From NCBI GenBank assembly GCA_014161675.1, contig GCA_014161675.1_4760.2: 53,227 nucleotides of DNA; one strand, written 5' to 3'. How positions within the stretch are numbered: the stretch's first letter is position 1; every line of letters starts with the position of its first letter. The translations under genes and the position numbers were made by a program. This document shows positions 4,476-48,082 of this stretch, piece after piece. The DNA is from a phage. The notes below the pieces were generated by a model. The model did not search any database. It was given only the letters and a program-made list of their open reading frames with translations, and was not told where the DNA came from.

Positions 4476-7400
4476 ATGGCAGATTTTTCTCAACATTTCA
4501 AGGCCACATTTGGCTTTGACGCTGGTAATGAAAAGGTCGTCAATGTAGCATTGGCTGATAAGAATGTCAACACCGATGCGGTCAACGTTGAATTTTTCAA
4601 TTACCATAATGGTATTACTCAGTATGACACAACTCGCGGTTATGATCAATACGGAACTACAATCTATCAAAACCGTCCGTATTATGCAAAAGAAGATATC
4701 ACAAAGCCAGCAGGAGATTTTGACCCGACTAAATGGCAAGCACTGCGCACGGACCCACGTTGGGATTATATTGCAGCAACTTCCGGTGATACTCCTTTAC
4801 AGTCTGGCGATTATATCGCAGCAGATGGTCAATTTGCAAACTTGACTTTCTCTATGCCAACTAAACCAGCAGAGGGAGACACTATAACAGTAAAAGATAT
4901 CGGTGGCAAGTGTGGTGTTAACGAATTATCGTTCTTGAGTACAGGACATGAGTTTTACCATAATGGTAATGTGTATAACAGAAAATGGTATTGCACTACC
5001 CCGTATGCAATGAACTATTTCATCTTTGTTCGGAATCGTTGGCATGTTTATCAGACAGGAACAGAGCCACGCGGTGTGTACGCACAGCCAGCGATTGATG
5101 CTATTCAAATGCAGAATGGTGATCAGGTATTTCGTCGTAGTTCGTTGGGTAATATTACCTTAGTGCTTCCTAAGTTTGCCAACAATGGCGACATGATCCA
5201 GACTACAGACCTTGACGGATTAACCGCAACCAACCACGTTACGGTTAAAGTTCATGAGCACGCAGAAGAACAATCAATTGGCACGTCCGGTCTAAAAGAG
5301 ATTATCGGTAAGCGTAGCGGTCATGGTGTATTCATCTTTGACAAGACGGAAAACTTATGGCGTTTGTGGGATGGTGATCAGTCTGTTCGTCTTAAACCGA
5401 TCATCAATGACACTCGCTTGCAACCTAATAGCTATGTTGCTGTATTTGGTGGTCGTGATGTTACTCTGACGCTGCCGACCAATGTCGAGCCGGGTGATCG
5501 TATTCAAGTTTCTATGCAGTATATGCACGGAAACCAGAATTGCCGTATTATCACCGCCACAGAGGATACAAAAATCCTTATGTCGAAAAACATGGTTCAG
5601 TTTCCGAAGCGTAGCGAGTACCCATTCAACGGGACCGACACATGGAAGGAAGTGTCTGAATTGTCGTTCAATGCGGCTAGTGATTATGTACCTTATCTGG
5701 AGTTCTCTTATTCAGAAGGTGATGATGGTAAGAAACATTGGCTGGTAGCACACGCTCATCCGATCGTAGAACGAGTAGATCCGACTCGTAAAGCGCGTGT
5801 CGGTGTAATTGCACTGGCTACCCAGACTGAAACGAATAAAAACCATGAAGAGAATCCTAGCGACGAAGTTGCAGTAACACCAAAAATGCTGGCTAATAAA
5901 ACCGCCAACGAAACTCGACGCGGTATTGCTCGCATTGCGACTCAGGCGGAAACGCATCAAGATACTGGTTCCATCTTCCTGGATGATGTTATCGTTACGC
6001 CTAAAAAGTTAAATGACTGTGTTGCTACCGAAGCCCGTCGTGGTGTGATGGAAATTGCAACCCAGCACGAAACCAATGAAGGTTTAGATGATACCCGCGC
6101 TATTACTCCTAAGAAATTAGAAGAACGTCGCGCTTCCGAAGATCTCGCTGGTATTGCTGAAATTGTTCAGGCTGGCGGTAGTGCTGCCGCTCGACGTGGC
6201 GAAGCTGGTACAGGGATCTATAACATCAACGACCATGTTAAAATTGTTACGCCACAAAACATCAACGAAGTCAAGGCGACCGAAACTTCCCGTGGTGTTG
6301 GCTATCTGGCAACTGACGCGGAAGTGCAAGGGGCTACAGAATCAACCCCGCAAGATGCTTTACTAATCACGACTCGCACGCTAACGAAACGTACTGCTAC
6401 AGAATCGCGTACTGGTATCGCTGAAATTGCAACTCAGGAAGAAACAAACTTAGGTCAAAGTGATAACCATATCATCACGCCTAAAAAGCTGCATACTCGC
6501 CGCGCAACGGAAACTTTACATGGTTTAGCAGAAATTGCAACTCAGACGGAATTTGACGCAGGTCTTGACGATTCTCGCATTTCTACCCCATTGAAGATTA
6601 AAACCTTCTTTGAGAATGCACAGCGTTTGAAAGTAGATCCGACTCAGGGGCTTAACCTTACTGGTGATTTGTGGCAAGGTATCATGATCAGCGGTCTGGA
6701 TGCAACCGAAGACACAAAAGGTGTCGCTAAAGTTGCTACTACTCAGCTTACGGATGCTGGTCAAGATGATACTACAATCATCACGCCTAAAAAGCTGCAA
6801 GGCAAAAAAGCCACCGAAGGTAAAGAAGGCATTATCCGAGTTGGTACTCAAGCCGAAACCGTGGCTGGTATTATGGACAATGTAGCAATTTCTCCGAAGA
6901 ACTTCAAATATGTTGTTCAGACAGAGGATACATGGAAAGCAACCGAAGCGCGTCGTGGCTTCTTGAAAGTTGCTACTCAGGAAAACTGTTTTGTTGGTGA
7001 TAATCTGCAAGGTTCTACTCAAGAACTAGGAAACTACCAGCATGACGGAATTGCTGTTACTCCGAAAGGATTAAACTACGCACTTGCTAATTTCTTACCT
7101 AAGATGGCAACCGCTCAGAATAGTTTGAAATTGGGTAACGTAGAGGCCGCTAAATGGGCGCGTAGAGACATTGACCAGACCATAGAGAGCAATTATACGT
7201 TTAATAAAAACGTTAACGTGAAGGGCGATTTAGAGTGCTTAAAATCTGGTTCCTTTGAAACTCTGTCTGTGACTAAGAACTCGACCGATGTTCCGAGTAA
7301 TGGTCATCTGGTATTGGGTGAGCGTGGAGTTGACGGTCACACCGGAATTACTCTGCATGGCACAACCGCATCGGAAGGCATGAAAAACTCTTGGTCTATT

Positions 7401-36803: not shown

Positions 36804-38216
36804 TTAGAAAGTCATGTTATTTGCTAGCTCGTCGAGTTTTTCTCGTTTCTCGGCTTGCTGTGCGCTTTGTGGTTTAACTTGTGCATTCTCCTGATCTGCG
36901 ATCTGGTTTGGGACTTCATACCAACGCTGATTGCCTTTTTTCACACCAACGTTAAACCGTGAATAATAGTTCTTATCACCGTAACGAGACTTGATCTGCT
37001 TCATGAGTTGGACGCCCATTTTAGCCAGGTCTTCGGTTTCGATAACACCCAACATAAAGTCGGCAGTAGCCGGAAGACCTGCTGATTCAGCGGTATCACT
37101 CATGTTAAGGTCGGAAGCATCCCAACCCGCGCGGGTAGTCTGTGCCGCAGTCCAACCAACAACATCCCACTTAACAAAAAATCCTCGCAGTTCTTCCGCA
37201 ATCGCCTTAACTAGTGTGTAACTATTTTCAGAGTATACACGCAAGCGAGACGATGCGCAAATCCCCAGATAGTCAACAATCACAACATCAGGTTTAAACT
37301 GTTTCTTGAGTCGCAATTCATTCATTAACGCCTCAAAGTGATTGGAGTTCGCGCCACCAGTCGGATACTGCTTGATCATCAATTTTCCAACCGGACGATC
37401 TCCGATCTTCTTATTCTTAACACGCTTCATACGTGCGGAATATTCCGCAAAAGAAACATTACCATTATCCAATTCATCTAATGTAATGTCAAGCAAGTTT
37501 GCGTCGATACGTTTGGCTACGACATGCTCTGCCATCTCCATTGAGATATACAATACATCATAACCACATTCCATATAATCCGCAGCAAGAGAACATAATC
37601 CAAGCGATTTACCAACATTTACACCAGCAAGCAACACATTTAGCGTTTTTCTTTCCGCACCTCCTTTCGTGATTTTATTCAACATCGGCAGCTTAAACGG
37701 GATCTTATTCGCCTTAGTCTGATATAGCAAGAATCGTTTTTCAAAGTCATTAAACCAGTCATGACCTACATCAGAATCAAACGTAATGGATAGTGCTTCC
37801 TGCATGATCTCAGGAATAGCACCCTCACTCGGCAATTTCTTATTCTGTTTCTCTTTTGGTAGTTGTGCGTTCGCCTGAATCTCTAGCGCCCGTGACATTG
37901 CATTATACATGGCACGGTCACGAATAAATTTTTCTGTTTCCTTCATTAACCAATCAAGGTCTTCCGGTGTATTCTCCAGCGAATCGAGAAGAGTTTTAGC
38001 CCCTTCATATGTTGTCTGATTGCCTCTCTCCTTGTCTAAAGCAATCTGTAATGCAGTTGGCGTAGGAATGTTGGAATATTCGTCTACGTGCTTTTTAATC
38101 AGTTTATAAATCAGTTTTTCTTCGTCTTCGGTGAAGTAGTCCGCTTTAAGGTGAGGCCATACATTCGTAAAGAATGCGCCATTGTAAATCAACTGTGAAA
38201 AGATAGTTTTAATCAT
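36804..38216 (-). CDS. 41: Replicative DNA helicase gp41 (DnaB-like)
   Basis: 470 aa; DnaB/RecA-fold motifs (LNVLLAGVNVGKS, YISMEMAE, VVIVDYLGI) and T4 position between 61 and uvsX. Confidence 0.92.
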   Translation of the reverse strand: MIKTIFSQLIYNGAFFTNVWPHLKADYFTEDEEKLIYKLIKKHVDEYSNIPTPTALQIALDKERGNQTTYEGAKTLLDSLENTPEDLDWLMKETEKFIRDRAMYNAMSRALEIQANAQLPKEKQNKKLPSEGAIPEIMQEALSITFDSDVGHDWFNDFEKRFLLYQTKANKIPFKLPMLNKITKGGAERKTLNVLLAGVNVGKSLGLCSLAADYMECGYDVLYISMEMAEHVVAKRIDANLLDITLDELDNGNVSFAEYSARMKRVKNKKIGDRPVGKLMIKQYPTGGANSNHFEALMNELRLKKQFKPDVVIVDYLGICASSRLRVYSENSYTLVKAIAEELRGFFVKWDVVGWTAAQTTRAGWDASDLNMSDTAESAGLPATADFMLGVIETEDLAKMGVQLMKQIKSRYGDKNYYSRFNVGVKKGNQRWYEVPNQIADQENAQVKPQSAQQAEKREKLDELANNMTF

Positions 38217-38530
38217 ACATAGCCCCCAACTACACGCATAACAAAGGTCTTGAGTTTATACCAGAAAGTTTCTTTTTTCAACTTTTCTTCTGCTTCTTTG
38301 ATCTGCGCGGTTAACGCCTTAATGACGTGTGGATATACCACATCACGATCTGACGGCGTGGAGTAGTCGACCACAATACCTTTAGTGTCTGGATCGTATT
38401 CAACATTATGAATATAGACAATATGATGTTCTCCCTCTTCATCAACAATTATCAGTTCCTGAATAACTGTCTTCATTGCTTCTTGAATCAAGCTGTGTGC
38501 TTCTTCTAAACTTGTTGGTTTCTTATCCAT
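38213..38530 (-). CDS. Hypothetical protein (105 aa), positional counterpart of T4 gene 40
   Basis: ORF between 41 and uvsX with a hydrophobic C-terminus. Assignment by position only. Confidence 0.4.
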   Translation of the reverse strand: MDKKPTSLEEAHSLIQEAMKTVIQELIIVDEEGEHHIVYIHNVEYDPDTKGIVVDYSTPSDRDVVYPHVIKALTAQIKEAEEKLKKETFWYKLKTFVMRVVGGYV

Positions 38531-38550
38531 AATATAATCCTCTCTAGATA

Positions 38551-38575
38551 TGAAAAAGGGGCACGTAGCCCCTTT
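38551..38575 (-). terminator. Rho-independent terminator after uvsX
   Basis: Minus strand AAAGGGGC-TACGT-GCCCCTTT followed by TTTTTC; the ribosome-binding site of the next gene follows directly, so read-through is likely. Confidence 0.7.
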
Positions 38576-38585
38576 ACTACCATTG

Positions 38586-39656
38586 TTATGCTAACATATC
38601 TTCGATTTCTTTGTCAACTGCTTCGTCGCTGATCACTTGCCCCAGCTTATAATGATCGTTGATTGCTTCGTTAAACTTATCGTTTGTCAGAAGTGGTTTC
38701 CAGAACTCAATGCTATTGGTTTCTTTAGCACGGAACTTGCGTTCTTCGGTTTCCATCTCTCCGGTCTCGGTATTTAGGATTGAACGAGAATACCAGCCGT
38801 TTGACGGTTTCACTACCCAGCCTAACTCTACAGCCAATTCCAGCAAGCCGGAATAAGGATCGATGCCACCGCTAAATGTTACGCTAATCGGGAACTTCGA
38901 TTTTTCTTTAACGGTTCGTGATTTTTCCGCATTCAGGATAAAATCATAACCAGTAATTTCGGTTCCTTCTTTCTGCTGACGACGACCAATAATGAAAACT
39001 TCATTGGCTGAATACATCGCGCCCGTACCGCCGGACATAACGGTCTTACTAAACATTTCTTGCGTTTCGTAAGTGTGGTTAATAGCGATGCACGGGATAT
39101 CATTCATAGTCAGATACGGTGTCACCATACGGAACAAGCCTTTAAGTGCTTTAGCTCGCGTCATATCCTGTGCGGATTTCTCATTAATCGCGTCTTCAAC
39201 TTCTTTTTTACTTGCTAAGTTACCGATTGAGTCAATAAAGATGATCACTTTATCTTCACGGGTAATTTGCTCAAGCTGGTTCATGATTTCAAATTTAAGT
39301 TCTTCGATGTTCTTGATTGGAACATGCACCACGCGATCAGGATCTACACCCATAGATTCAAGATAAGCGGATGTAATACCGAACTCAGAATCAAAGAACA
39401 AACACGCCGCATCAGGATTCTGTTTCATGTATGCACTAACACAGGTTAATCCCATGTTTGATTTAAAGTGCTTAGACGGACCAGCAAAGAAAATCAGACC
39501 AGATTGAAAGCCTTTTTTAAGATCACCCGAAAACGCAATATTCAGCATCGGGATCTTAGTGCGAGTATTTGTTTTTTCGTTAAAGAAGCTGGATTTAGAC
39601 AGTACCGCAGTAGTTTTCAGGGTAGAGTTCTTTTTCAGTTTTTCCAGTACAGACAT
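38586..39656 (-). CDS. uvsX: UvsX recombinase (RecA-like)
   Basis: 356 aa; recalled T4 UvsX similarity (KIPMLNIAFSGD, FAGPSKHFKSN, FFDSEFGIT, FIDSIGNLASKKE, IAINHTYETQEMFSKTVMSGGTG, KSRTVKEKSKF). Confidence 0.93.
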   Translation of the reverse strand: MSVLEKLKKNSTLKTTAVLSKSSFFNEKTNTRTKIPMLNIAFSGDLKKGFQSGLIFFAGPSKHFKSNMGLTCVSAYMKQNPDAACLFFDSEFGITSAYLESMGVDPDRVVHVPIKNIEELKFEIMNQLEQITREDKVIIFIDSIGNLASKKEVEDAINEKSAQDMTRAKALKGLFRMVTPYLTMNDIPCIAINHTYETQEMFSKTVMSGGTGAMYSANEVFIIGRRQQKEGTEITGYDFILNAEKSRTVKEKSKFPISVTFSGGIDPYSGLLELAVELGWVVKPSNGWYSRSILNTETGEMETEERKFRAKETNSIEFWKPLLTNDKFNEAINDHYKLGQVISDEAVDKEIEDMLA

Positions 39657-39667
39657 TATTAATACCT

Positions 39668-39856
39668 CTATTCAGTTAATCCGTAATACTTTAATTGCTT
39701 CATTGTTATTCGATCTTTGTAGTGCTCTTGAATTAACTTTTTCATCGCATCAACATCGATCGTCACAAATACTTCGTTGCTGTGATTTCCGTGAACTTTC
39801 TTGAAATGCTCTATGCCTTCCTCACGTTCACGTTTAATCTTTTCAATGTCTCTCAT
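39668..39856 (-). CDS. Hypothetical protein (62 aa) in the uvsX-43 gap
   Basis: Start set at the ATG (MRDIEKIKRER...) after GAGAAAT. This is the only ORF where T4 carries beta-gt, 42 and imm. Confidence 0.4.
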   Translation of the reverse strand: MRDIEKIKREREEGIEHFKKVHGNHSNEVFVTIDVDAMKKLIQEHYKDRITMKQLKYYGLTE

Positions 39857-39900
39857 CGTATATTTCTCACGTTGGCGGGTATCGTCACCCAACACCCGCC

Positions 39901-39928
39901 ATTATACACACTTTATCTTAAATGTCAA
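39901..39928 (-). promoter_or_regulatory. Sigma70-type promoter overlapping the end of gene 43
   Basis: Minus strand TTGACA (39923-39928), 16-bp spacer, TATAAT (39901-39906); the leader contains the hairpin GGCGGGT-13 nt-ACCCGCC. Confidence 0.5.
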
Positions 39929-42596
39929 ACAGGTCAGTCAGAGAAGCAACTTTCTCATATTGCAGCTTTGCAGCCGTGGTAATGTTCTCCAGTGGTTTGA
40001 CGAAAGTCTTATTAAACAACAAAGGCCAGTCCAACCACTTCAACACCTCTGATTCAATTTCTGGTGGAATACGAGTACCGGACAACCAACCAAAACAGAT
40101 TTCTCCAAACGGATTTCGATCTTTAAGCGGTACAATCATAACCTTCTCGCCCTCACGAATCGGATCTAGTCCGAATTTTCGAGCATTACGATTATAACAC
40201 AATACACTCTTAACCGCATACGGACAGCCCTTAATCGGATACCCGTTTGAATCGCTGTATTTCTGTAGGTTGTTTGCAGATGATACCGCAGCAACCTCAA
40301 GATAATCAAGTTTTCTAAATTCTTGCTCAAAAATACCGTAGTATTCCTGCAATGACTCTTCACCTTCCTGCAACATACGGCGAATACATTCTTTCAGTGA
40401 TTTCTGACATGCTTTAGGGGTGGAGCTACGTTGCGTTTCCAAGCCCATGATTTTTAGCTTAGGTTCAGCAAAGCGCGTTCCTTCCATATCCCAAACATTA
40501 AGAGCATAACGCTTTTTGCCAGTCCAGAATCCACCGATACCCGCAGATTTCAACGGAGGACCAGCAATTGCCTCACGGTCCATAAACATCAAGTGCTCAT
40601 AGTTGTTCATGTACTCGCATAACTCGCGATATCCCTTGTCGATAATAGGTTCCATTCGATGTTTACCGAAATTATCAAGGAAGTCAACAAGTTTTTCGGT
40701 ATCGTCGAAACGGTCTTCCCCGCCAACCTTATCAACAACATTGTTAACCAGCACATAAACGGAGTCAGTATCACAATAACGAACATATGCAAAATCGGTT
40801 GTTCCGCAAAGCTCGTTTAAGTATTCGTTAATCTTACGCTCAATCCACTGAATTGCAAGCTGACCAAACAAGGTGATCGCACTAGCGTTACGGAGATCAT
40901 AAAAACGGAATTTAGGATTCCCCAACGCACCATAAAGGGAGTTGATCAAAACTTTACGAGAAAGCTGGTTTGTATTGCACAAGATCGACTCGTCTTTACA
41001 TTCTTCCAGCAATTTCTCTAAGGCATCTTTACTTAATTCAGAAAGCATCGATTTAAACGCTTCATCAAAGTCGTGACGCACTTCAACGCTATAGCTAATG
41101 GTCCCCCCATAAACATGATTTTCATCGTGTAGAATCGCTTTACATAGTTCAGCATTGCGATCACATGCCAACATCATGTTTTTGTACTGCTTACGCTGAT
41201 CGAATACCTTTTTAATCTCAATCGGTACGATACCATGAATATCTTTTCGATACATCCATCCGTTAGGCGAGCAAGAATACTCATCACTCGGACGTGGTGC
41301 AGTTTTATTGATATACTCGTGCATCGGTGCAGCATCAAAAGATCCGGCGATTGTTTCAGGCGAAATATTAACCTGTCGAATAATAGATGGATACAGACTT
41401 GTTAAGTCAAAGCTCATCATCCAACGGTAAGCATTAGGTACTGGCTCTTTTACAAATGCGCCCGGATAAGTCTGCTTAGGCTGTATCTTGTTCTCCGGTA
41501 CTACTTTACCCTCAGCTTTCAGAGATCCGAAAATAATAGCATCCCATACTTTCATCGGGTTATAAACATGGTTAAATTTAATCTTTGCATAGAAACATAG
41601 ACTATACACAAGATCGATAAATCCACGCTTTTTATCAATCGCCAGCACACGATCAACGTCGCCGATGTTATAATCGATGTAAAGTTGATGGTTATCATCA
41701 CGCAATTTCTTTAACGGACCATCATAATCAACCTTACCGATTCCTGTCTCATATTCAGCAACATAATCTAACGCATATGTTGGTTGAGTCGTAAAGCTAA
41801 ATTTCTTGTACAGGTCAATATAATCAAGGCTTTCGATCCCCATGATCGTAAATGCTTCACGCTCGTTACCAAAATCATCCTGTGAGATTCGGGATTTAAT
41901 CTTACCGCACGGGCTTAGACGGTTAGCGGTTCTACTTCCGAACTTATTACTGATACGTTTAATGATATATGGAATATCGAATGTTTCTGTGTTCCAGCCA
42001 GTGAAACCAACGGGTCGGTTTTCCTCAAAGAATCGGATGTATTCTAACAGCAATTCATCTTCTGTGTCATAGACGTTATAAACAACGCGCTCTACAATAT
42101 CAGGTCGAAGAATAGACTTGCTAGATTCCCAGATTTCACCGTTTTTTCCTTTCAAATCAAATACAAAGAAACGATCATGTACGGAATCATAATGCGTAAT
42201 TGCATCGATAGGATATTTCGCTTCTTCTGGTTTAGGAAATTCTGGGGCAGTGACCTCGATATCAACCCATGCTACACGGATTTTATTTCGGTCATATCGA
42301 ATCTCGCCTTTATACGTATCAGACAGATAGGAGATGATAAAATCATCCATCCCTAGCGCCTCTTGCCCCATTTCTCCCATCTTTTTACGCCATTTGTTGG
42401 CCTCGTTCATAGAGGGGAATTTTTTAGCAATGCAAGGCTTGCCATAGATATCTTTATAATTCGTAACCATACCAGGCGCGGCATGATGAAATAAAGTTGG
42501 CGTATATTCAACGTAACGCTCTTGTTCTTGTCCAGCATCATCAATATAACGCTCGTAGATCTTATCACCTACTCGCTCACATGACAGAAAATACAT
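39918..42596 (-). CDS. 43: DNA polymerase gp43 (family B)
   Basis: Recalled T4 gp43 similarity throughout (ERYID, KFPSM, DIEVT, FTGWN, SLYPSIIRQVNISPETI, YCDTDSVYV, KKRYALNV). Start set at the ATG at 42596 preceded by GAAGGAG; the track's GTG extension is rejected. Confidence 0.95.
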   Translation of the reverse strand: MYFLSCERVGDKIYERYIDDAGQEQERYVEYTPTLFHHAAPGMVTNYKDIYGKPCIAKKFPSMNEANKWRKKMGEMGQEALGMDDFIISYLSDTYKGEIRYDRNKIRVAWVDIEVTAPEFPKPEEAKYPIDAITHYDSVHDRFFVFDLKGKNGEIWESSKSILRPDIVERVVYNVYDTEDELLLEYIRFFEENRPVGFTGWNTETFDIPYIIKRISNKFGSRTANRLSPCGKIKSRISQDDFGNEREAFTIMGIESLDYIDLYKKFSFTTQPTYALDYVAEYETGIGKVDYDGPLKKLRDDNHQLYIDYNIGDVDRVLAIDKKRGFIDLVYSLCFYAKIKFNHVYNPMKVWDAIIFGSLKAEGKVVPENKIQPKQTYPGAFVKEPVPNAYRWMMSFDLTSLYPSIIRQVNISPETIAGSFDAAPMHEYINKTAPRPSDEYSCSPNGWMYRKDIHGIVPIEIKKVFDQRKQYKNMMLACDRNAELCKAILHDENHVYGGTISYSVEVRHDFDEAFKSMLSELSKDALEKLLEECKDESILCNTNQLSRKVLINSLYGALGNPKFRFYDLRNASAITLFGQLAIQWIERKINEYLNELCGTTDFAYVRYCDTDSVYVLVNNVVDKVGGEDRFDDTEKLVDFLDNFGKHRMEPIIDKGYRELCEYMNNYEHLMFMDREAIAGPPLKSAGIGGFWTGKKRYALNVWDMEGTRFAEPKLKIMGLETQRSSTPKACQKSLKECIRRMLQEGEESLQEYYGIFEQEFRKLDYLEVAAVSSANNLQKYSDSNGYPIKGCPYAVKSVLCYNRNARKFGLDPIREGEKVMIVPLKDRNPFGEICFGWLSGTRIPPEIESEVLKWLDWPLLFNKTFVKPLENITTAAKLQYEKVASLTDLFDI

Positions 42597-42628
42597 AATA
42601 TAAACTCCTTCATTTACGAAAGACACTC

Positions 42629-42657
42629 ATTATAGGGGAATCGACCTAGTTTGTCAA
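42629..42657 (-). promoter_or_regulatory. Sigma70-type promoter upstream of gene 43
   Basis: Minus strand TTGACA (42652-42657), 17-bp spacer, TATAAT (42629-42634), in the regA-43 intergenic region. Confidence 0.55.
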
Positions 42658-42678
42658 TACCCCTATCCCATCAGTATC

Positions 42679-43041
42679 TTAGCGTCCGATTTGATATTTC
42701 TCTATAAGTGTCCATTCTTCTTTCTGTTTGAAAGACAGTACACGGAAATTATTAACTTCGGTAGTTTCAAAATCACTATCAATCAGGGTACACAGATTCC
42801 ACTGCGCCAGAAGTTTTGCAATGTTATTGCGGCGTAATTCATCTTCCCACGTCATTTTAACACTACGACCATCTAATTTCAACAACTCCTTGAAATGAAC
42901 GATGTAATAGCGCCCTTTCTTCTGGAGAATATGACAAGACTGATACAGTGTCTTGTCACGATTGTTGGCAATGCCGCAGCGGGTTAAAGTCTCCTTAATT
43001 TTAAGGAAGTTTTCAGGACTAATCAAATTAATTTCAATCAT
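42679..43041 (-). CDS. regA: Translational repressor RegA
   Basis: 120 aa; near-identical to recalled T4 RegA over the N-terminus (MIEI.L..PE.FLK.KETLTR.GIANN.DK.LYQSCHILQKKG.YYIVHFKE). Confidence 0.92.
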   Translation of the reverse strand: MIEINLISPENFLKIKETLTRCGIANNRDKTLYQSCHILQKKGRYYIVHFKELLKLDGRSVKMTWEDELRRNNIAKLLAQWNLCTLIDSDFETTEVNNFRVLSFKQKEEWTLIEKYQIGR

Positions 43042-43042
43042 T

Positions 43043-43621
43043 TTACCACCTTTCTATAATCTTTTTAAGTCGTTTCCTTTCTGTCTGATTCTTAGTAACA
43101 CCCGCCAAAAGTTCATCGGTCGCATACGGTTTAATGTGCTTCAATAACTTGTCCATATATCCCTTTTCATTAGCCAAATCGAGATAAAACCGGGCGTCAT
43201 CCATATTTACACAATATGCTTTCGCCACTGCCATTAAAACCAATTTTTGGTCCAATTCTTCTGTTAGTTTAGCCCATTTACCGTATCGTTTCCCCTTAGA
43301 AATACTCTGTAAGAGATAATCAAAATGCATTTGATCTGGGAGGCCATGACCGATTAAATTCATCACATACGCGCTATATAGGCAATCTGCGTGCTGGGAA
43401 AGAGCGGTGTTAATCCATCTCTGGTTATATGCAGAATTGTTTCCCACATTAACGCGCTGTTTATCTAAGGTGATATGATCCATCAGAGCAAATAATGCAT
43501 TGTCGGTTTTCTCGGTGAATGTATCCGCTAATTCAGACACCTTTTCCCAATCACGAGAGCGCCATGCAATTTCATGCTCGTTTAATTGTGTATCATCTTC
43601 ACCGAAAAATTGACCTAACAT
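43043..43621 (-). CDS. 62: Clamp loader small subunit gp62
   Basis: 192 aa; recalled T4 gp62 similarity (QLNEH..AW.S.DW, KGKRYGKWAKL); position between regA and 44. Confidence 0.85.
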   Translation of the reverse strand: MLGQFFGEDDTQLNEHEIAWRSRDWEKVSELADTFTEKTDNALFALMDHITLDKQRVNVGNNSAYNQRWINTALSQHADCLYSAYVMNLIGHGLPDQMHFDYLLQSISKGKRYGKWAKLTEELDQKLVLMAVAKAYCVNMDDARFYLDLANEKGYMDKLLKHIKPYATDELLAGVTKNQTERKRLKKIIERW

Positions 43622-44595
43622 TATACGAACTCCAATTCAACCATTAATTGCATTAACAAAAAGACAATGTGAATCTCTTTATCAGCCGCGTGTGCAAACA
43701 TCTGATTATTTTCACCGATAATCTCGGTCAGACGGATAATCGACGCTGGCTTAACTTGAGTATACAACTCATTATAAAGTTTCTTGACAAATTGAGCGTA
43801 TGTATTGGTATATCGCGGTGCAAGTTTACGCACATTAGCAAACTGTTTAGTTTTAAGTGCTTCCACCACATCGGTTACTTCGGTATTGCTACTTTCGATA
43901 ACCATGCTCAATACGCCAGCATCAATTTTACCGTGTTTAGCGTAGCGGTCCAAAAGTTTCATTACGCGCCGGAAGTCTGGAAAGTTCTGCTTAACCAGTT
44001 CCGCTAATACGCGCATTTCTTCTACTGGCACACCTTCTTTATCAAGAATTGCTTTACACCGGACGATCATTTCTTTCATCATGCGAAGCTGATCATCTTT
44101 AGTCGGAGATCCAAACGTGATGGGGTCAAAACGAGATCGTAACGCTGGGATAATACCTTCTAGATCGTTTGCTGTGATAATGAATGTTACATTGTTTGAG
44201 TATGCCTCAGAGAAACTACGCAAGTGTCTTTGAGCGTCAGCCAACCCCGCTCGGTCATACTCATCGATAATAACAACTTTGCCTTTTTCTCGTTTTTCTT
44301 CATCGAGTGATACACTCTGCGCAAAGCGTGTAATCTCATCGCGGATAAAATCAATCTTACAATCTGCGCCGTTAACAAACAGATAATCGACACCCACATC
44401 TTCGCAAAGCGCCTTAGCAACGGTTGTTTTACCAGTACCCGGCGATGGGCTATGCAGAATCATTGAAGGGATTCGGCCCTGCTTAACAATCTGCGCGAAG
44501 ATCTTTTTATCTGCTTCCGGCAGAATACATTCAGAAATTGATTTCGGACGATATTTCTGTTCCCACTGAAACTCATTTTCATTAACACTCAGCAT
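43621..44595 (-). CDS. 44: Clamp loader large subunit gp44 (AAA+)
   Basis: Walker A SPSPGTGKTT, VIIDEYDR, sensor region; recalled T4 gp44 similarity. Start set at the ATG (MLSVNENEF) after GAGAGGTGA. Confidence 0.92.
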   Translation of the reverse strand: MLSVNENEFQWEQKYRPKSISECILPEADKKIFAQIVKQGRIPSMILHSPSPGTGKTTVAKALCEDVGVDYLFVNGADCKIDFIRDEITRFAQSVSLDEEKREKGKVVIIDEYDRAGLADAQRHLRSFSEAYSNNVTFIITANDLEGIIPALRSRFDPITFGSPTKDDQLRMMKEMIVRCKAILDKEGVPVEEMRVLAELVKQNFPDFRRVMKLLDRYAKHGKIDAGVLSMVIESSNTEVTDVVEALKTKQFANVRKLAPRYTNTYAQFVKKLYNELYTQVKPASIIRLTEIIGENNQMFAHAADKEIHIVFLLMQLMVELEFV

Positions 44596-44626
44596 ATAAT
44601 CACCTCTCACAAATTACATCATTAAA

Positions 44627-44646
44627 ACGGGGAGTATTTACACTCC
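44627..44646 (-). promoter_or_regulatory. 5'-leader hairpin of the 44/62/regA transcript
   Basis: Minus strand GGGGAGT-GTAAAT-ACTCCCC between the promoter at 44655-44683 and the gene 44 ribosome-binding site. Confidence 0.4.
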
Positions 44647-44654
44647 CCACAAAC

Positions 44655-44683
44655 ATTATATTAGTCGGTGTAGCTGGAGTCAA
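44655..44683 (-). promoter_or_regulatory. Sigma70-type promoter at the end of gene 45
   Basis: Minus strand TTGACT (44678-44683), 17-bp spacer, TATAAT (44655-44660). Confidence 0.55.
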
Positions 44684-45350
44684 GGTCACACGCGATCATA
44701 TAAGATACGGTTTCACTTGCCAGCCATACAGCCTTACGGCGAGTGAAGCTCAGTTTGTAATCGCCGAAGTCAGTAGCAACCAGTTTCATGTTATCTTTAC
44801 GAATAAAGAAATGGAAGTCGGCGGTTCCGGCATATTCGCCCATGTCAAGACAAAACATCTCATTAGGATTATTTTTGTCAATCTCTTCCCAACCTTTGAT
44901 CATCAGACGACCATCAATCGGAAGAAATTCAAGGCGATCCACTTTAAGCTGGTTGCTCATTTTCATAAGCTGTTTCAGATCGTCGTTGCTCAGTTCGTAA
45001 TCTACATCACTTGCAGGTGGAGTAACTCGGCCTTTCGGTGATACGATAGCAGCAGCACTAGCACCAGGATAATTAATTTTCAGACGATCATTAGACACAC
45101 GAATGTTACCAGTGCGGTTATCAACCGTAATATCTGCTTCATCGCCTACCAGATTCAGAATACCCAAGAAAGAGTTAAGATCATAGATCCCGATTTCGTG
45201 TTCCAGTTCTTGATTCAGAGTCGCTTCACCATATACAACGTTTGTCATGTTTTTGGTGATCAGGACGTTTCCTTTTTTCAGGATGATACCTGGGTTAATA
45301 GCGGAAAAGTTTTTAAGGGTAGCAATGGTTTCTTTAGTCAGTTTCATCAA
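44661..45350 (-). CDS. 45: Sliding clamp gp45
   Basis: 229 aa; recalled T4 gp45 similarity (LKNFS.IN.GI.LK, IYDLN.FLGIL.LV); position between 44 and rpbA. Confidence 0.9.
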   Translation of the reverse strand: MMKLTKETIATLKNFSAINPGIILKKGNVLITKNMTNVVYGEATLNQELEHEIGIYDLNSFLGILNLVGDEADITVDNRTGNIRVSNDRLKINYPGASAAAIVSPKGRVTPPASDVDYELSNDDLKQLMKMSNQLKVDRLEFLPIDGRLMIKGWEEIDKNNPNEMFCLDMGEYAGTADFHFFIRKDNMKLVATDFGDYKLSFTRRKAVWLASETVSYMIACDLDSSYTD

Positions 45351-45377
45351 ATCACCTTTATCATGTTAATCAATTAA

Positions 45378-45755
45378 TTATGGGTTTACTGCGTGTTCGT
45401 TACGAATCTTGAGCATTTTGTTTTGGAAGTTTTCCGCAGCTTGCTCATCAATAGTATGAGTATATCTGAATCCAATGTATGCCGTCAAGTATTGTTGCAG
45501 AGCATAGACAGTAACAGGATTCTTTGCGGTCTTCTTGCCTTCGAGATATACCAGATCCCCGCAAGGTTCAAAAGCAAGTTTACGACGAATCACATTATCA
45601 ACAAACTCATCAACAACAAAATGCCAAATGTTGCTATCGGTTCCAATATCAAAATTAACCACACTGCCACGTTTGACATAATCAAACGGTATCGGGAATA
45701 GTTTATAGTCAAGTTCGATAAACATTAATTGTTCTTTTAAGCTCATACGTTTCAT
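45378..45755 (-). CDS. Hypothetical protein, positional counterpart of T4 rpbA
   Basis: Start trimmed to the Met of MKRMSL to avoid overlap with the upstream gene. Assignment by position and size only. Confidence 0.45.
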   Translation of the reverse strand: MKRMSLKEQLMFIELDYKLFPIPFDYVKRGSVVNFDIGTDSNIWHFVVDEFVDNVIRRKLAFEPCGDLVYLEGKKTAKNPVTVYALQQYLTAYIGFRYTHTIDEQAAENFQNKMLKIRNEHAVNP

Positions 45756-45759
45756 TCTA

Positions 45760-46152
45760 TCACTTCCCATCAGCAATTGCGATCAGACGAGTTACTACTA
45801 CGCTAGCGGCTTCAATCAGCAGTTCATCAGTGTCAATCTGATAACCTTTTTCGAGAATATCTTTACCTCGAATAGTTTTAGCGCCTTTAGCAATTGAATC
45901 ATCGTAATACTTGCGCATTGCAGCGATCCATTCTTTTTGCACCATATCATCAATATGCGCGTACAGTTCAAAGCGTGCTTGCTGCGGGATAACCTTCATT
46001 TTAGCTTTCTCGCTTTCTGGCATTTGTAGTACCCACGCTTTACGGATCTTGTTCATTGCTCTGTCAAATTCGAGACTGGTTTTCTTGTTCTGAATGTCTG
46101 CTACAGTAATTTTAGCCAGGTTTGCGGAAGTAGTCATAATATTAATCTCCAA
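45760..46152 (-). CDS. Hypothetical protein (130 aa)
   Basis: ORF between 46 and 45. Confidence 0.45.
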   Translation of the reverse strand: MEINIMTTSANLAKITVADIQNKKTSLEFDRAMNKIRKAWVLQMPESEKAKMKVIPQQARFELYAHIDDMVQKEWIAAMRKYYDDSIAKGAKTIRGKDILEKGYQIDTDELLIEAASVVVTRLIAIADGK

Positions 46153-46167
46153 AATAAAATCAGTATA

Positions 46168-46398
46168 TCACGTTCTAAAGTTTGTTGCAACCCCAGCATC
46201 AGGGTAATCAAGTTTATCAAAGTTGGGGACCAGCATAAACTCATGATGACGGCAAGACAACATTTTTGTTATGTCTTCATCGCTGTATATGCTGTTTTTC
46301 ATATCCCCCATACTAACTACATATTCTTCACCGGAATATAGATTGATTAAGGTATACAATTCTAACTCCGGCTGCGTTACTCTGTCAAATGTTAACAT
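46168..46398 (-). CDS. Hypothetical protein (76 aa)
   Basis: ORF; its start overlaps the gene 46 stop. Confidence 0.4.
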   Translation of the reverse strand: MLTFDRVTQPELELYTLINLYSGEEYVVSMGDMKNSIYSDEDITKMLSCRHHEFMLVPNFDKLDYPDAGVATNFRT

Positions 46399-48082
46399 TC
46401 ATTTCAGTGAATCGCCCACGTTTAACCATCTTGAGATGACGGCTAAAATCATCAGGGTTATGGTCACGATGGCTGATAATATACACGTTATCATCTAACT
46501 TGTCAATGATGGAATCAAGTGCTTTTACGCCTTGAACGTCCGTAGCCCCATCATAAATTTCGTCGAGTACCAACAAAGAAATATTAGTACCAGATACTTT
46601 ACCAGCAACATCACGCCATGTAAAGAGCATCGCAAGGTCAATACGTGCTTTTTCGCCTTGACTGAATGATGTATACGAAAACGATTCACGCCCCCGTGAT
46701 TTGATTGTTTCGTTAAACTCTTCATCTAGCGTAAAGATATAATCCGCTTCCATGATATCAAGATAATACGCAATCCGATCATTGAAATATGGAATATATT
46801 TCTTGACGATAGACGCCTTAACACCGGAATCCTTCAACATTTCTGTTACAAATCCACGATGATATTTTTCAAGAACTAGCTTTGATTTTTCATTAGTAAT
46901 CTCTACCAGTTCGTGTTCCAGTTTAGCAAGTTCTTCGGAATTGTCAACCCTTTCTTTTTGTAATTCCTGAATTGCTTTCTGGATCTGTTTAGCCCGACCT
47001 ACAGATGCCGTTAAATTCGCTCGCTGCGACTCTATAGCGCGTTTAATTTCCAAGACCTTAGTTTGTGCTGCCTGGAAAGAATTGGCTTTCTCTGCGTATT
47101 CTACGCGTTTCTCGTCAATCAGAGACAGTTTATGTTCCGCTTGTGCCTTTTGTTCGCGTACAGCCTGATCATTACCCTGAATGATTGGTTGTGTGCACGT
47201 AGGACAGATCCCGCCTTTCTCGTGCATATGGATAACACGGTCAAAGTTCTGGATCTGCGCACCAATCTGTGCGATAGCAGTATTAATTTTAGCCAATGCT
47301 GCGCTAGGATCTTCCGGCATAACAACAGCCAATAGCTCATCGGTCAAGCGAGTTTCTTCGGCTTTAAATGCTTTAGCCGATTCCACCTCTTTATCATACA
47401 TATTCTGTAAACGCTGGAGATTCTCGGCACTCGCCTTGCTAGCGTCTTCTATGTACTTTTTATGAGTGTTGATTTGTTGCTGAACGTGATTAGCTTTCAT
47501 TTCCTGCATTTGGATATTCTGGGTAATCTCTCGCACATACGCTTTATTCAGTTTATCCATTTCGCCTAGCGTAGCAATGTCAAGCAAATCCTCGACCAGT
47601 TTACGGCGACCCGCTGCCGGAAGACTCATAAACGGAACATAACCAGCAGTGCCTAAAACAACGATCTGTTTAAAGCTGGCTAGGTTCATTCCTATGATAC
47701 CTTCAAAATATTCCTGAAAGTCTTTGGTGCTTGCGCTCTCGTCGATCTTTTGACCGTCGCGATGCACTTCGAATACTTCCGGTTTTTGACCACGTTTGAT
47801 ATAAAACTCTTTCCCGTCCAGTTCAAACCAGACTTCGACTAACAGTTTCTTTTTGTTGACGCTGTTAATCAATTGGCCTTTCTTGATACTACGAAACGGT
47901 TTACCGAACAACACAAAGCAAAGCGCCTCGATCATTGTTGATTTACCAGCACCGTTAACACCAGTGATTAGTGTCTTTTTGAATCCGTCTAGCTGAATCT
48001 CTACAGGTTCAGCACCCACGCTCATTATATTTTGATAGCGCAAGGTTTTAAAATTTAACTTTGCCATTAATCCACTCCGCAA
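46385..48082 (-). CDS. 46: Recombination endonuclease subunit gp46 (Rad50/SbcC-like ATPase)
   Basis: 565 aa; Walker A GVNGAGKST, central coiled coil with a CxxC zinc hook (CPTCTQ), C-terminal signature and Walker B (LLVLDE). Confidence 0.92.
   Translation of the reverse strand: MRSGLMAKLNFKTLRYQNIMSVGAEPVEIQLDGFKKTLITGVNGAGKSTMIEALCFVLFGKPFRSIKKGQLINSVNKKKLLVEVWFELDGKEFYIKRGQKPEVFEVHRDGQKIDESASTKDFQEYFEGIIGMNLASFKQIVVLGTAGYVPFMSLPAAGRRKLVEDLLDIATLGEMDKLNKAYVREITQNIQMQEMKANHVQQQINTHKKYIEDASKASAENLQRLQNMYDKEVESAKAFKAEETRLTDELLAVVMPEDPSAALAKINTAIAQIGAQIQNFDRVIHMHEKGGICPTCTQPIIQGNDQAVREQKAQAEHKLSLIDEKRVEYAEKANSFQAAQTKVLEIKRAIESQRANLTASVGRAKQIQKAIQELQKERVDNSEELAKLEHELVEITNEKSKLVLEKYHRGFVTEMLKDSGVKASIVKKYIPYFNDRIAYYLDIMEADYIFTLDEEFNETIKSRGRESFSYTSFSQGEKARIDLAMLFTWRDVAGKVSGTNISLLVLDEIYDGATDVQGVKALDSIIDKLDDNVYIISHRDHNPDDFSRHLKMVKRGRFTEMNVNI

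Follow-up and report, generated by a model that had tools for sequence, protein, structure and literature searches.

What do the GC-rich hairpins beside the promoters of a T4-type replication gene cluster do: are they translational operators, or do they belong to the promoters? We addressed this question in a phage DNA of 53,227 nucleotides (contig GCA_014161675.1_4760.2 of assembly GCA_014161675.1; "the window" means this whole stretch). The region in question is that of a Krischvirus, an RB49-like T4-type coliphage, and carries genes 45, 44, 62, regA, 43, a 62-aa open reading frame (ORF) and uvsX, all on the minus strand. An earlier note on this DNA had read two GC-rich hairpins in the cluster as candidate operators for gp43 and RegA. 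Three junctions are at issue, 45/44 (J1), regA/43 (J2) and 43/ORF025c (J3), the last named after the RB49 homolog of the 62-aa ORF. Conservation was assessed in alignments of the three junctions from 21 Krischvirus sequences, drawn from GenBank phage records, together with the window. A consensus scan identified the following promoters.

44683-44655, minus strand: J1 promoter, TTGACT-17-TATAAT, 11/12 consensus positions
42657-42629, minus strand: J2 promoter, TTGACA-17-TATAAT, 12/12 consensus positions
39928-39901, minus strand: J3 promoter, TTGACA-16-TATAAT, 12/12 consensus positions

These are the three sigma70-type promoters that the earlier note had predicted, and the matches are exact. 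Its further statement that each promoter overlaps or abuts the stop of the upstream gene holds at two of them. At J1 the -35 box TTGACT (44683-44678) lies within the 3' end of gene 45 and the -10 box TATAAT (44660-44655) touches the gene 45 stop (44663-44661), directly 3' of it, while at J3 the gene 43 stop (39920-39918) is inside the promoter spacer. At J2, however, 21 nt separate the regA stop (42681-42679) from the -35 box downstream, so that this promoter is intergenic and neither overlaps nor abuts a stop. Across the whole window there are 24 sigma70 matches of at least 11/12, 8 of them perfect; every one lies on the minus strand, and the plus strand has none. From first-order Markov simulations, 2.3 such matches and 0.08 perfect ones would be expected for both strands together. 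This excess indicates that the promoters are real and part of a genome-wide pattern. The promoter hexamers are invariant at all three junctions (at J2, in the 15 distinct sequences among the 21 relatives and the window). In the RB49 GenBank record all three sites are labelled "hypothetical early promoter", and the GEC-3S record labels two of them (J2 and J3) as promoters, with similar labels in further GenBank records. Together these data support the assignment of the sites as predicted sigma70-type early promoters at gene junctions, in agreement with the GenBank annotation.

Each promoter is joined to a stem-loop. Sequences, structures, conservation and geometry are given below as observed at each junction.

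44648-44629, minus strand: J1 stem-loop, GGGGAGUG-UAAA-UACUCCCC (folding: -13.8 kcal/mol, z = -4.2)
44628-44621, minus strand: J1 tail, GUUUUAAU, directly 3' of the stem
42666-42632, minus strand: J2 stem-loop, AUAGGGG-U-AUUGAC-AAACUAG-GUCGAU-U-CCCCUAU (folding, 35 nt)
39901-39873, minus strand: J3 stem-loop, UGGCGGGUGUUG-GGUGA-CGAUACCCGCCA, 12 bp (folding: -22.2 kcal/mol, z = -6.3)

The J1 hairpin has the pattern GGGGAGU...ACUCCCC, starting at the predicted +1: its first stem G (44648) is 7 nt past the -10 box, and the transcript predicted for the J1 promoter retains the hairpin at nt 1-20 (z = -3.2). The stem is kept in the alignment with five loop variants (UAAA, CAAA, AAA with a 9-bp stem, UUA and AUAAA), and in UPWr_E1 the terminal G-C pair is lost. 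In SSG23, JEP8 and E26 a U directly follows the stem, giving CCCC-UUUUUAAU with a U5 tract, a form that is, as far as sequence can tell, a textbook intrinsic terminator. Four GenBank records (GEC-3S, Makalu_002, G2248 and G5211) label the J1 hairpin as a terminator, with ARNold-type annotations among them. A kept stem with a free loop and a U5 tract is the expected signature of a terminator, not of a loop-specific protein site. The RB49 record places a hypothetical late promoter in the J1 loop, a reading that is disfavoured by the variable loop sequence.

The J2 stem-loop was missed by the earlier note. It is a third GC hairpin, of the GGGG...CCCC type, and wraps the regA/43 promoter, enclosing the -35 box and overlapping the -10 box. 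Its energy was -16.5 or -17.6 kcal/mol in two computations, and it lies entirely upstream of the predicted +1 (~42624-42622, assuming a 7-nt spacing from the -10 box). In the inner stem an A-U pair is changed to G-C in SSG23 and Makalu_002, and changes of U-G to U-A and of G-C to G-U are also found, with pairing preserved. Across the 15 distinct sequences 99.3% of cells are paired, and the shuffle control (6/500) gives modest support.

The stem at J3 (GGCGGG...CCCGCC) starts at the last base of the -10 box, and its 5' arm spans the -10 box to +1. All 12 bp are kept in all sequences, with one change of G-C to G-U and two loop changes, while the adjacent 3' end of gene 43 has ~8 variable sites. 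The predicted start of the J3 RNA, ~39895-39893 with the same assumed spacing of 7 nt, is within the 5' arm; the promoter's own transcript is thus predicted to lose the hairpin (z = -1.0), and RNA reading through from gene 43 to keep it (z = -5.2). The earlier note had described the J1 and J3 structures as GC-rich leader hairpins. Both do fold and are conserved, but the J3 hairpin falls outside the predicted leader of its own promoter.

This arrangement is of a published kind. PeSLs (promoter-early stem-loops) were defined in RB49 and phi1 (Arbiol et al. 2010, PMC2839356; see also Comeau et al. 2014, PMC4122927) as composites of a sigma70-consensus promoter and a stem-loop that often has polyG and then polyC. 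The stem-loop is found in between the -35 box and the -10 box, overlapping either box, or just past the -10 box (PMC2839356). One whole PeSL is a very strong promoter (~13,000 Miller units), one stem-loop cut lacZ expression as much as rrnB T1, a stem-loop from PeSL211/210 was a strong terminator, and gene 43 is stated to be flanked by PeSLs on both sides; the promoter and terminator activities in vivo refer to other copies only (PMC2839356). Like PeSLs, the three sites in the window combine a consensus sigma70 promoter with a polyG/polyC stem-loop where two genes meet, the stop of the first gene and the Shine-Dalgarno sequence and ATG of the second being nearby. The stem-loop subclasses also match, J2 being placed around the -35 and -10 boxes and J1 and J3 just past the -10 box. 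In a canonical phi1 PeSL the hairpin AGGGGAUC-GGU-GAUCCCCU is within the spacer and is followed by TATAAT. The end of J2, GAT(T)CCCCTATAAT, is common to phi1 PeSLs 212/210, 206/205 and 193/191, and J1 and J3 match in the hexamers only. We put the probability that the three sites are PeSL-type cassettes, composites of promoter and stem-loop, at about 0.78. As a class such elements are already known, and since the promoters themselves had been annotated, there is nothing new in that respect.

Several of the 24 sigma70 matches in the window are classic PeSLs, in which a hairpin with a U tract overlaps the -10 box or the start site. Examples on the minus strand are 33607-33579 (GCCUCC...GGAGGC, then U6) and 26768-26741 (AAGGGAGA...UCUCCCUU, then UUCUUUU).

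A number of observations weigh against the assignment of the three junctions as PeSL-type cassettes. The A+T-rich stretch typical of PeSLs upstream of the -35 box is absent at all three sites, where the 20 nt upstream of this box have 55%, 55% and 45% A+T compared with a window mean of 59%. The ~100-bp sequence common to the PeSLs of the hyperplastic regions also appears to be absent from these sites, which share the parts of these elements and not the repeat sequence. The -35 box is inside coding DNA at J1 and J3, where the stops lie at or downstream of it, and J1 is not explicitly named among the PeSLs (PMC2839356, PMC4122927). Covariation is thin, with one compensatory J2 pair that probably represents a single event. 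The consensus scan of the window did not flag J1 as a terminator, and J2 and J3 have no U tract (their tails are AAUGAGUG and ACGUGAGA); these two are not canonical intrinsic terminators, and may act only through polymerase pausing or 3'-end protection. As both lack U tracts, true termination at J2 and J3 is something we infer. The closest phi1 counterpart of the tested PeSL211/210, which may differ from it in sequence, is the ORF212/210 junction (phi1 does not have ORF211), with a spacer hairpin followed by only UUAUAAU. The literature was also searched for mapped RB49 transcripts and for terminators of this gene cluster in T4, with no usable result; where RNA starts, whether it ends at these hairpins and whether the promoters are active in vivo are likewise matters that we infer.

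If the cassettes work as proposed, the promoters would be read early by unmodified host RNA polymerase and would provide separate entry points for 44/62/regA, for 43, and for ORF025c-uvsX-40-41. The GC-rich stem-loop would act on RNA arriving from upstream, terminating it, attenuating it or giving it a protected 3' end. Each unit would be insulated from the preceding one by a one-way insulator, after which the promoter would restart transcription. With the J2 hairpin and the 5' arm of J3 upstream of +1, only read-through RNA would fold these hairpins, and the RNA from the cassette's own promoter would escape. The role of J1 may be dual, as a terminator for gene 45 RNA and as a 5'-terminal hairpin of gene 44 RNA, where it may protect the 5' end.

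This last role can be taken further. The J1 hairpin could be a 5'-terminal stabiliser that hinders decay by RppH and RNase E and prolongs the life of the gene 44/62/regA mRNA, an additional function that does not exclude the PeSL-type reading and that we regard as possible but tentative. RNA beginning at G44648 would start with a fully paired stem, the G is a purine at a good +1 distance of 7 nt from the -10 box, and the hairpin at nt 1-20 of the predicted transcript is consistent with such a role. 5' stem-loops are well known to stabilise E. coli mRNA, as Emory, Bouvet and Belasco reportedly described in 1992. On the other hand, the +1 at G44648 is a prediction, the first G-C pair is absent in UPWr_E1, and the U5 tails of three relatives suggest that termination is the selected property. 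A role at the DNA level would also be compatible with PeSL-type cassettes, namely as preferred recombination points for the modular exchange of gene 43. Such shuffling of PeSLs was proposed by Arbiol et al., who called the gene 43 locus plastic (PMC2839356), and the nearest relative of the window does switch between segments along 45-uvsX: when 38500-45400 was compared with 19 Krischvirus loci, the closest was FL37 in gene 62, kaaroe in the 5' third of gene 43 and Sf20 in the middle of gene 43. Within the genus, recombination is pervasive. However, switches of nearest neighbour also occur within gene 43 and elsewhere, and with mosaicism everywhere the breakpoints are not pinned to the cassettes. 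The three cassettes have only hexamers in common, which would provide little homology for recombination. We therefore consider a role as recombination points rather unlikely.

It is, by comparison, next to impossible that the promoter matches and the hairpins arose by chance in A+T-rich phage DNA. Weak 9/12 matches are indeed common in the window (59 found against ~40 expected), and in random 119-nt segments the mean energy of the best hairpin is -10 kcal/mol. A hairpin census did not discriminate strong promoters from random positions (mean best hairpin -10.8 versus -10.0 kcal/mol); hairpins that are long but imperfect occur widely, and those that stand out are limited to J2, J3 and a few others. 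Chance is nevertheless refuted by the excess of perfect and near-perfect matches over the Markov expectation, confined to the coding strand, and by the conservation of the elements while neighbouring coding DNA varies; the J3 and J2 hairpins are also 3.7 and 2.1 standard deviations beyond control hairpins. The proposal of the earlier note was that the two GC-rich hairpins it described are candidate RNA operators, through which gp43 or RegA would repress the downstream genes. T4 gp43 acts on its own mRNA as a repressor by way of a hairpin operator, and 44, 45 and other genes are repressed by RegA (PMC3014915). In both the window and RB49 a hairpin in the gene 43 leader has the same loop as J1, GUAAAU, and a remark in the same review has UAAA in the loop of the RB49 gp43 operator (PMC3014915). 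Yet J1 lies ahead of gene 44, and J3 past gene 43, before ORF025c and uvsX. Neither is in the gene 43 leader, and since an autogenous operator must sit in the initiation region of gene 43 itself, both fail as gp43 operators; the 5' arm of J3 is moreover upstream of the predicted +1. RegA binds A+U-rich sites free of structure that overlap the AUG or lie just 5' of it (PMC3014915), unlike these stable GC-rich hairpins, whose 3' ends are 33 nt (J1) and 16 nt (J3) upstream of the AUG. Among close relatives the J1 loop varies, and its changes do not follow those of the gene 43 leader loop; the loop bases needed for recognition (UAAC or UAAA) are thus not conserved at J1, and in T4 the positional counterparts of these hairpins are terminator hairpins. 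An operator function for the GC-rich hairpins is therefore very unlikely. Even less probable is that gp43 binds the GUAAAU hairpins of both the gene 44/62 and the gene 43 leaders and so represses the clamp loader together with itself. If true, the autogenous circuit of gp43 would grow into a small regulon, but as the two loops vary independently in the other 20 genomes, coincidence is far likelier, and we rejected shared gp43 binding as the meaning of the shared loop. Our preferred reading is thus that of PeSL-type cassettes, and we keep the label "translational operator" off the terminator-type hairpins.

The leader hairpin of gene 43, absent from the earlier note, is of a different type.

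42623-42606, minus strand: weak hairpin in the gene 43 leader, UCUUUC-GUAAAU-GAAGGA (folding: -4.8 kcal/mol, z = -1.1)

The Shine-Dalgarno sequence of gene 43 (AAGGAG, 42610-42605) forms its 3' arm. In 15 sequences the stem persists, with a single change of U-A to U-G; this change, in JEP8, also strengthens the Shine-Dalgarno sequence. The loop is GUAAAU only in the window and RB49, and GUAAGU in the other 20 of 22 sequences. The review's UAAA remark, which cites Petrov and Karam 2004, fits this hairpin, and we suggest that 42623-42606 is likely the best candidate for a gp43 translational operator. This singles out one weak Shine-Dalgarno hairpin for studies of gp43 autoregulation.

Around the same promoter, read-through RNA is predicted to form a larger structure on the minus strand. 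The regA stop region AAGAUACU (42673-42680) could pair with AGUGUCUU (42620-42627) of the gene 43 leader, forming a ~60-nt compound hairpin around the promoter hairpin, in competition with the Shine-Dalgarno hairpin. The two 8-mers show no variation and hence no covariation. The last 30 nt of regA have four substitutions unique to the window.

The segment AAUGAUGUAA at 44614-44623 (minus strand), downstream of the J1 hairpin and upstream of the Shine-Dalgarno sequence of gene 44, forms an AUG-AUG-UAA mini-frame. It is A+U-rich and resembles selected RegA ligands (AUGUAA; UAA repeats), and as a RegA contact it seems more plausible than the J1 hairpin.

At J3, the segment from the -10 box to the predicted start (39895-39900, minus strand) is GGCGGG, a very GC-rich discriminator. 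In E. coli, promoters with GC-rich discriminators are sensitive to ppGpp and DksA. The GGCGGG discriminator could thus tie expression of the uvsX unit to host physiology.

The genes flanking the three junctions were assigned as follows.

44661-45347, minus strand: gene 45, sliding clamp (Pfam)
43621-44595, minus strand: gene 44, clamp-loader large subunit (Pfam Gp44_lid, Gp44_C, AAA)
43043-43621, minus strand: gene 62, clamp-loader subunit (Pfam)
42679-43041, minus strand: regA (Pfam RegA family)
39918-42596, minus strand: gene 43, family B DNA polymerase, 892 aa (Pfam DNA_pol_B, DNA_pol_B_exo1)
39668-39856, minus strand: 62-aa ORF, homolog of RB49 ORF025c (phrog_12120, unknown function, E = 4e-42)
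38586-39656, minus strand: uvsX (Pfam)

The coding sequence of gene 44 is 975 nt, equal to that in the RB49 record, with its ATG at 44595 and the Shine-Dalgarno region at ~44608-44601. The 62-aa ORF, which had no Pfam match, is the first gene downstream of the J3 promoter, and uvsX is the next. An Rfam scan of 38000-46500 at E <= 1 gave no matches. The 5.3-kb stretch around the three junctions is 98-98.7% identical to ~60 Krischvirus genomes, including RB49, phi1, JSE and GEC-3S. In IMG/VR, a search by RegA returned only distant T4-like contigs (at most 66% identity), and an exact-word scan found 2 Krischvirus contigs. Gene 43 of the window is intact, with no intron or homing-endonuclease insertion. 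In JK32, G5211 and JEP8 (loci ~5514-6690), and also in JSE, kvi and others, it is split by an insertion of ~1.1 kb carrying a NUMOD3/HNH-type endonuclease ORF; the review describes a putative group I intron in JSE (PMC3014915).

How, then, do these elements compare with the controls known from T4 and its relatives? The RegA operators of T4 and RB69 share with this locus the target, gene 44 being the classical RegA target, and the RegA ligands AAAAUUGUUAUGUAA and (UAA)n are resembled by the A+U-rich UUAAUGAUGUAAUU that separates the J1 hairpin from the Shine-Dalgarno sequence of gene 44. RegA operators are unstructured and located at the AUG, however, and the GC hairpins of the window have neither property. 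The gp43 operator of T4 and RB69 is, like the weak leader hairpin, a small hairpin in the gene 43 initiation region, with UAAC in the loop where the window has UAAA. It differs in position, since the window hairpin reaches from -27 to -10, Shine-Dalgarno sequence included, whereas the T4 operator spans -36 to -19, upstream of the Shine-Dalgarno sequence, and the window hairpin is very weak (-4.8 kcal/mol).

The closest parallels in T4 to the GC-rich hairpins are its intercistronic hairpins, comprising C(UUCG)G-type hairpins and intrinsic terminators. GC hairpins with U-rich tails directly follow the T4 stops of 45, regA and 43, the same three junctions as in the window, with GC-rich stems of 5-8 bp. 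As T4 has terminator hairpins at these junctions, the window hairpins are their positional counterparts. Among 40 distant T4-like contigs, ~9 have a hairpin with a U tract after regA, and 3 have a strong sigma70 match there. At the T4 45/44 junction itself (T4T, 1999-2026), TTAATA-16-TATAAT matches the consensus at 10/12 positions with a C(UUCG)G hairpin as spacer, a PeSL-like layout. Between uvsX and gene 40 the window has a canonical intrinsic terminator, AAAGGGGC-UACG-UGCCCCUUU followed by UU (38553-38575, minus strand), with no promoter attached; it is annotated as a terminator in GEC-3S, Makalu_002 and G2248. Judged by its sequence, the site after uvsX, which has no promoter behind it, is thus one where the phage relies on a canonical terminator. 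In T4 the hairpins have U-rich tails and stand apart from promoters, whereas those of the window are fused with sigma70 promoters and two have no U tract. In RB49, neither MotA nor middle promoters were found (Nolan et al. 2006, PMC1524935), and the T4 "middle" replication genes accordingly have host-type promoters here. In this lineage without MotA, the genes that T4 treats as middle would be served by consensus host promoters fused to one-way insulators.

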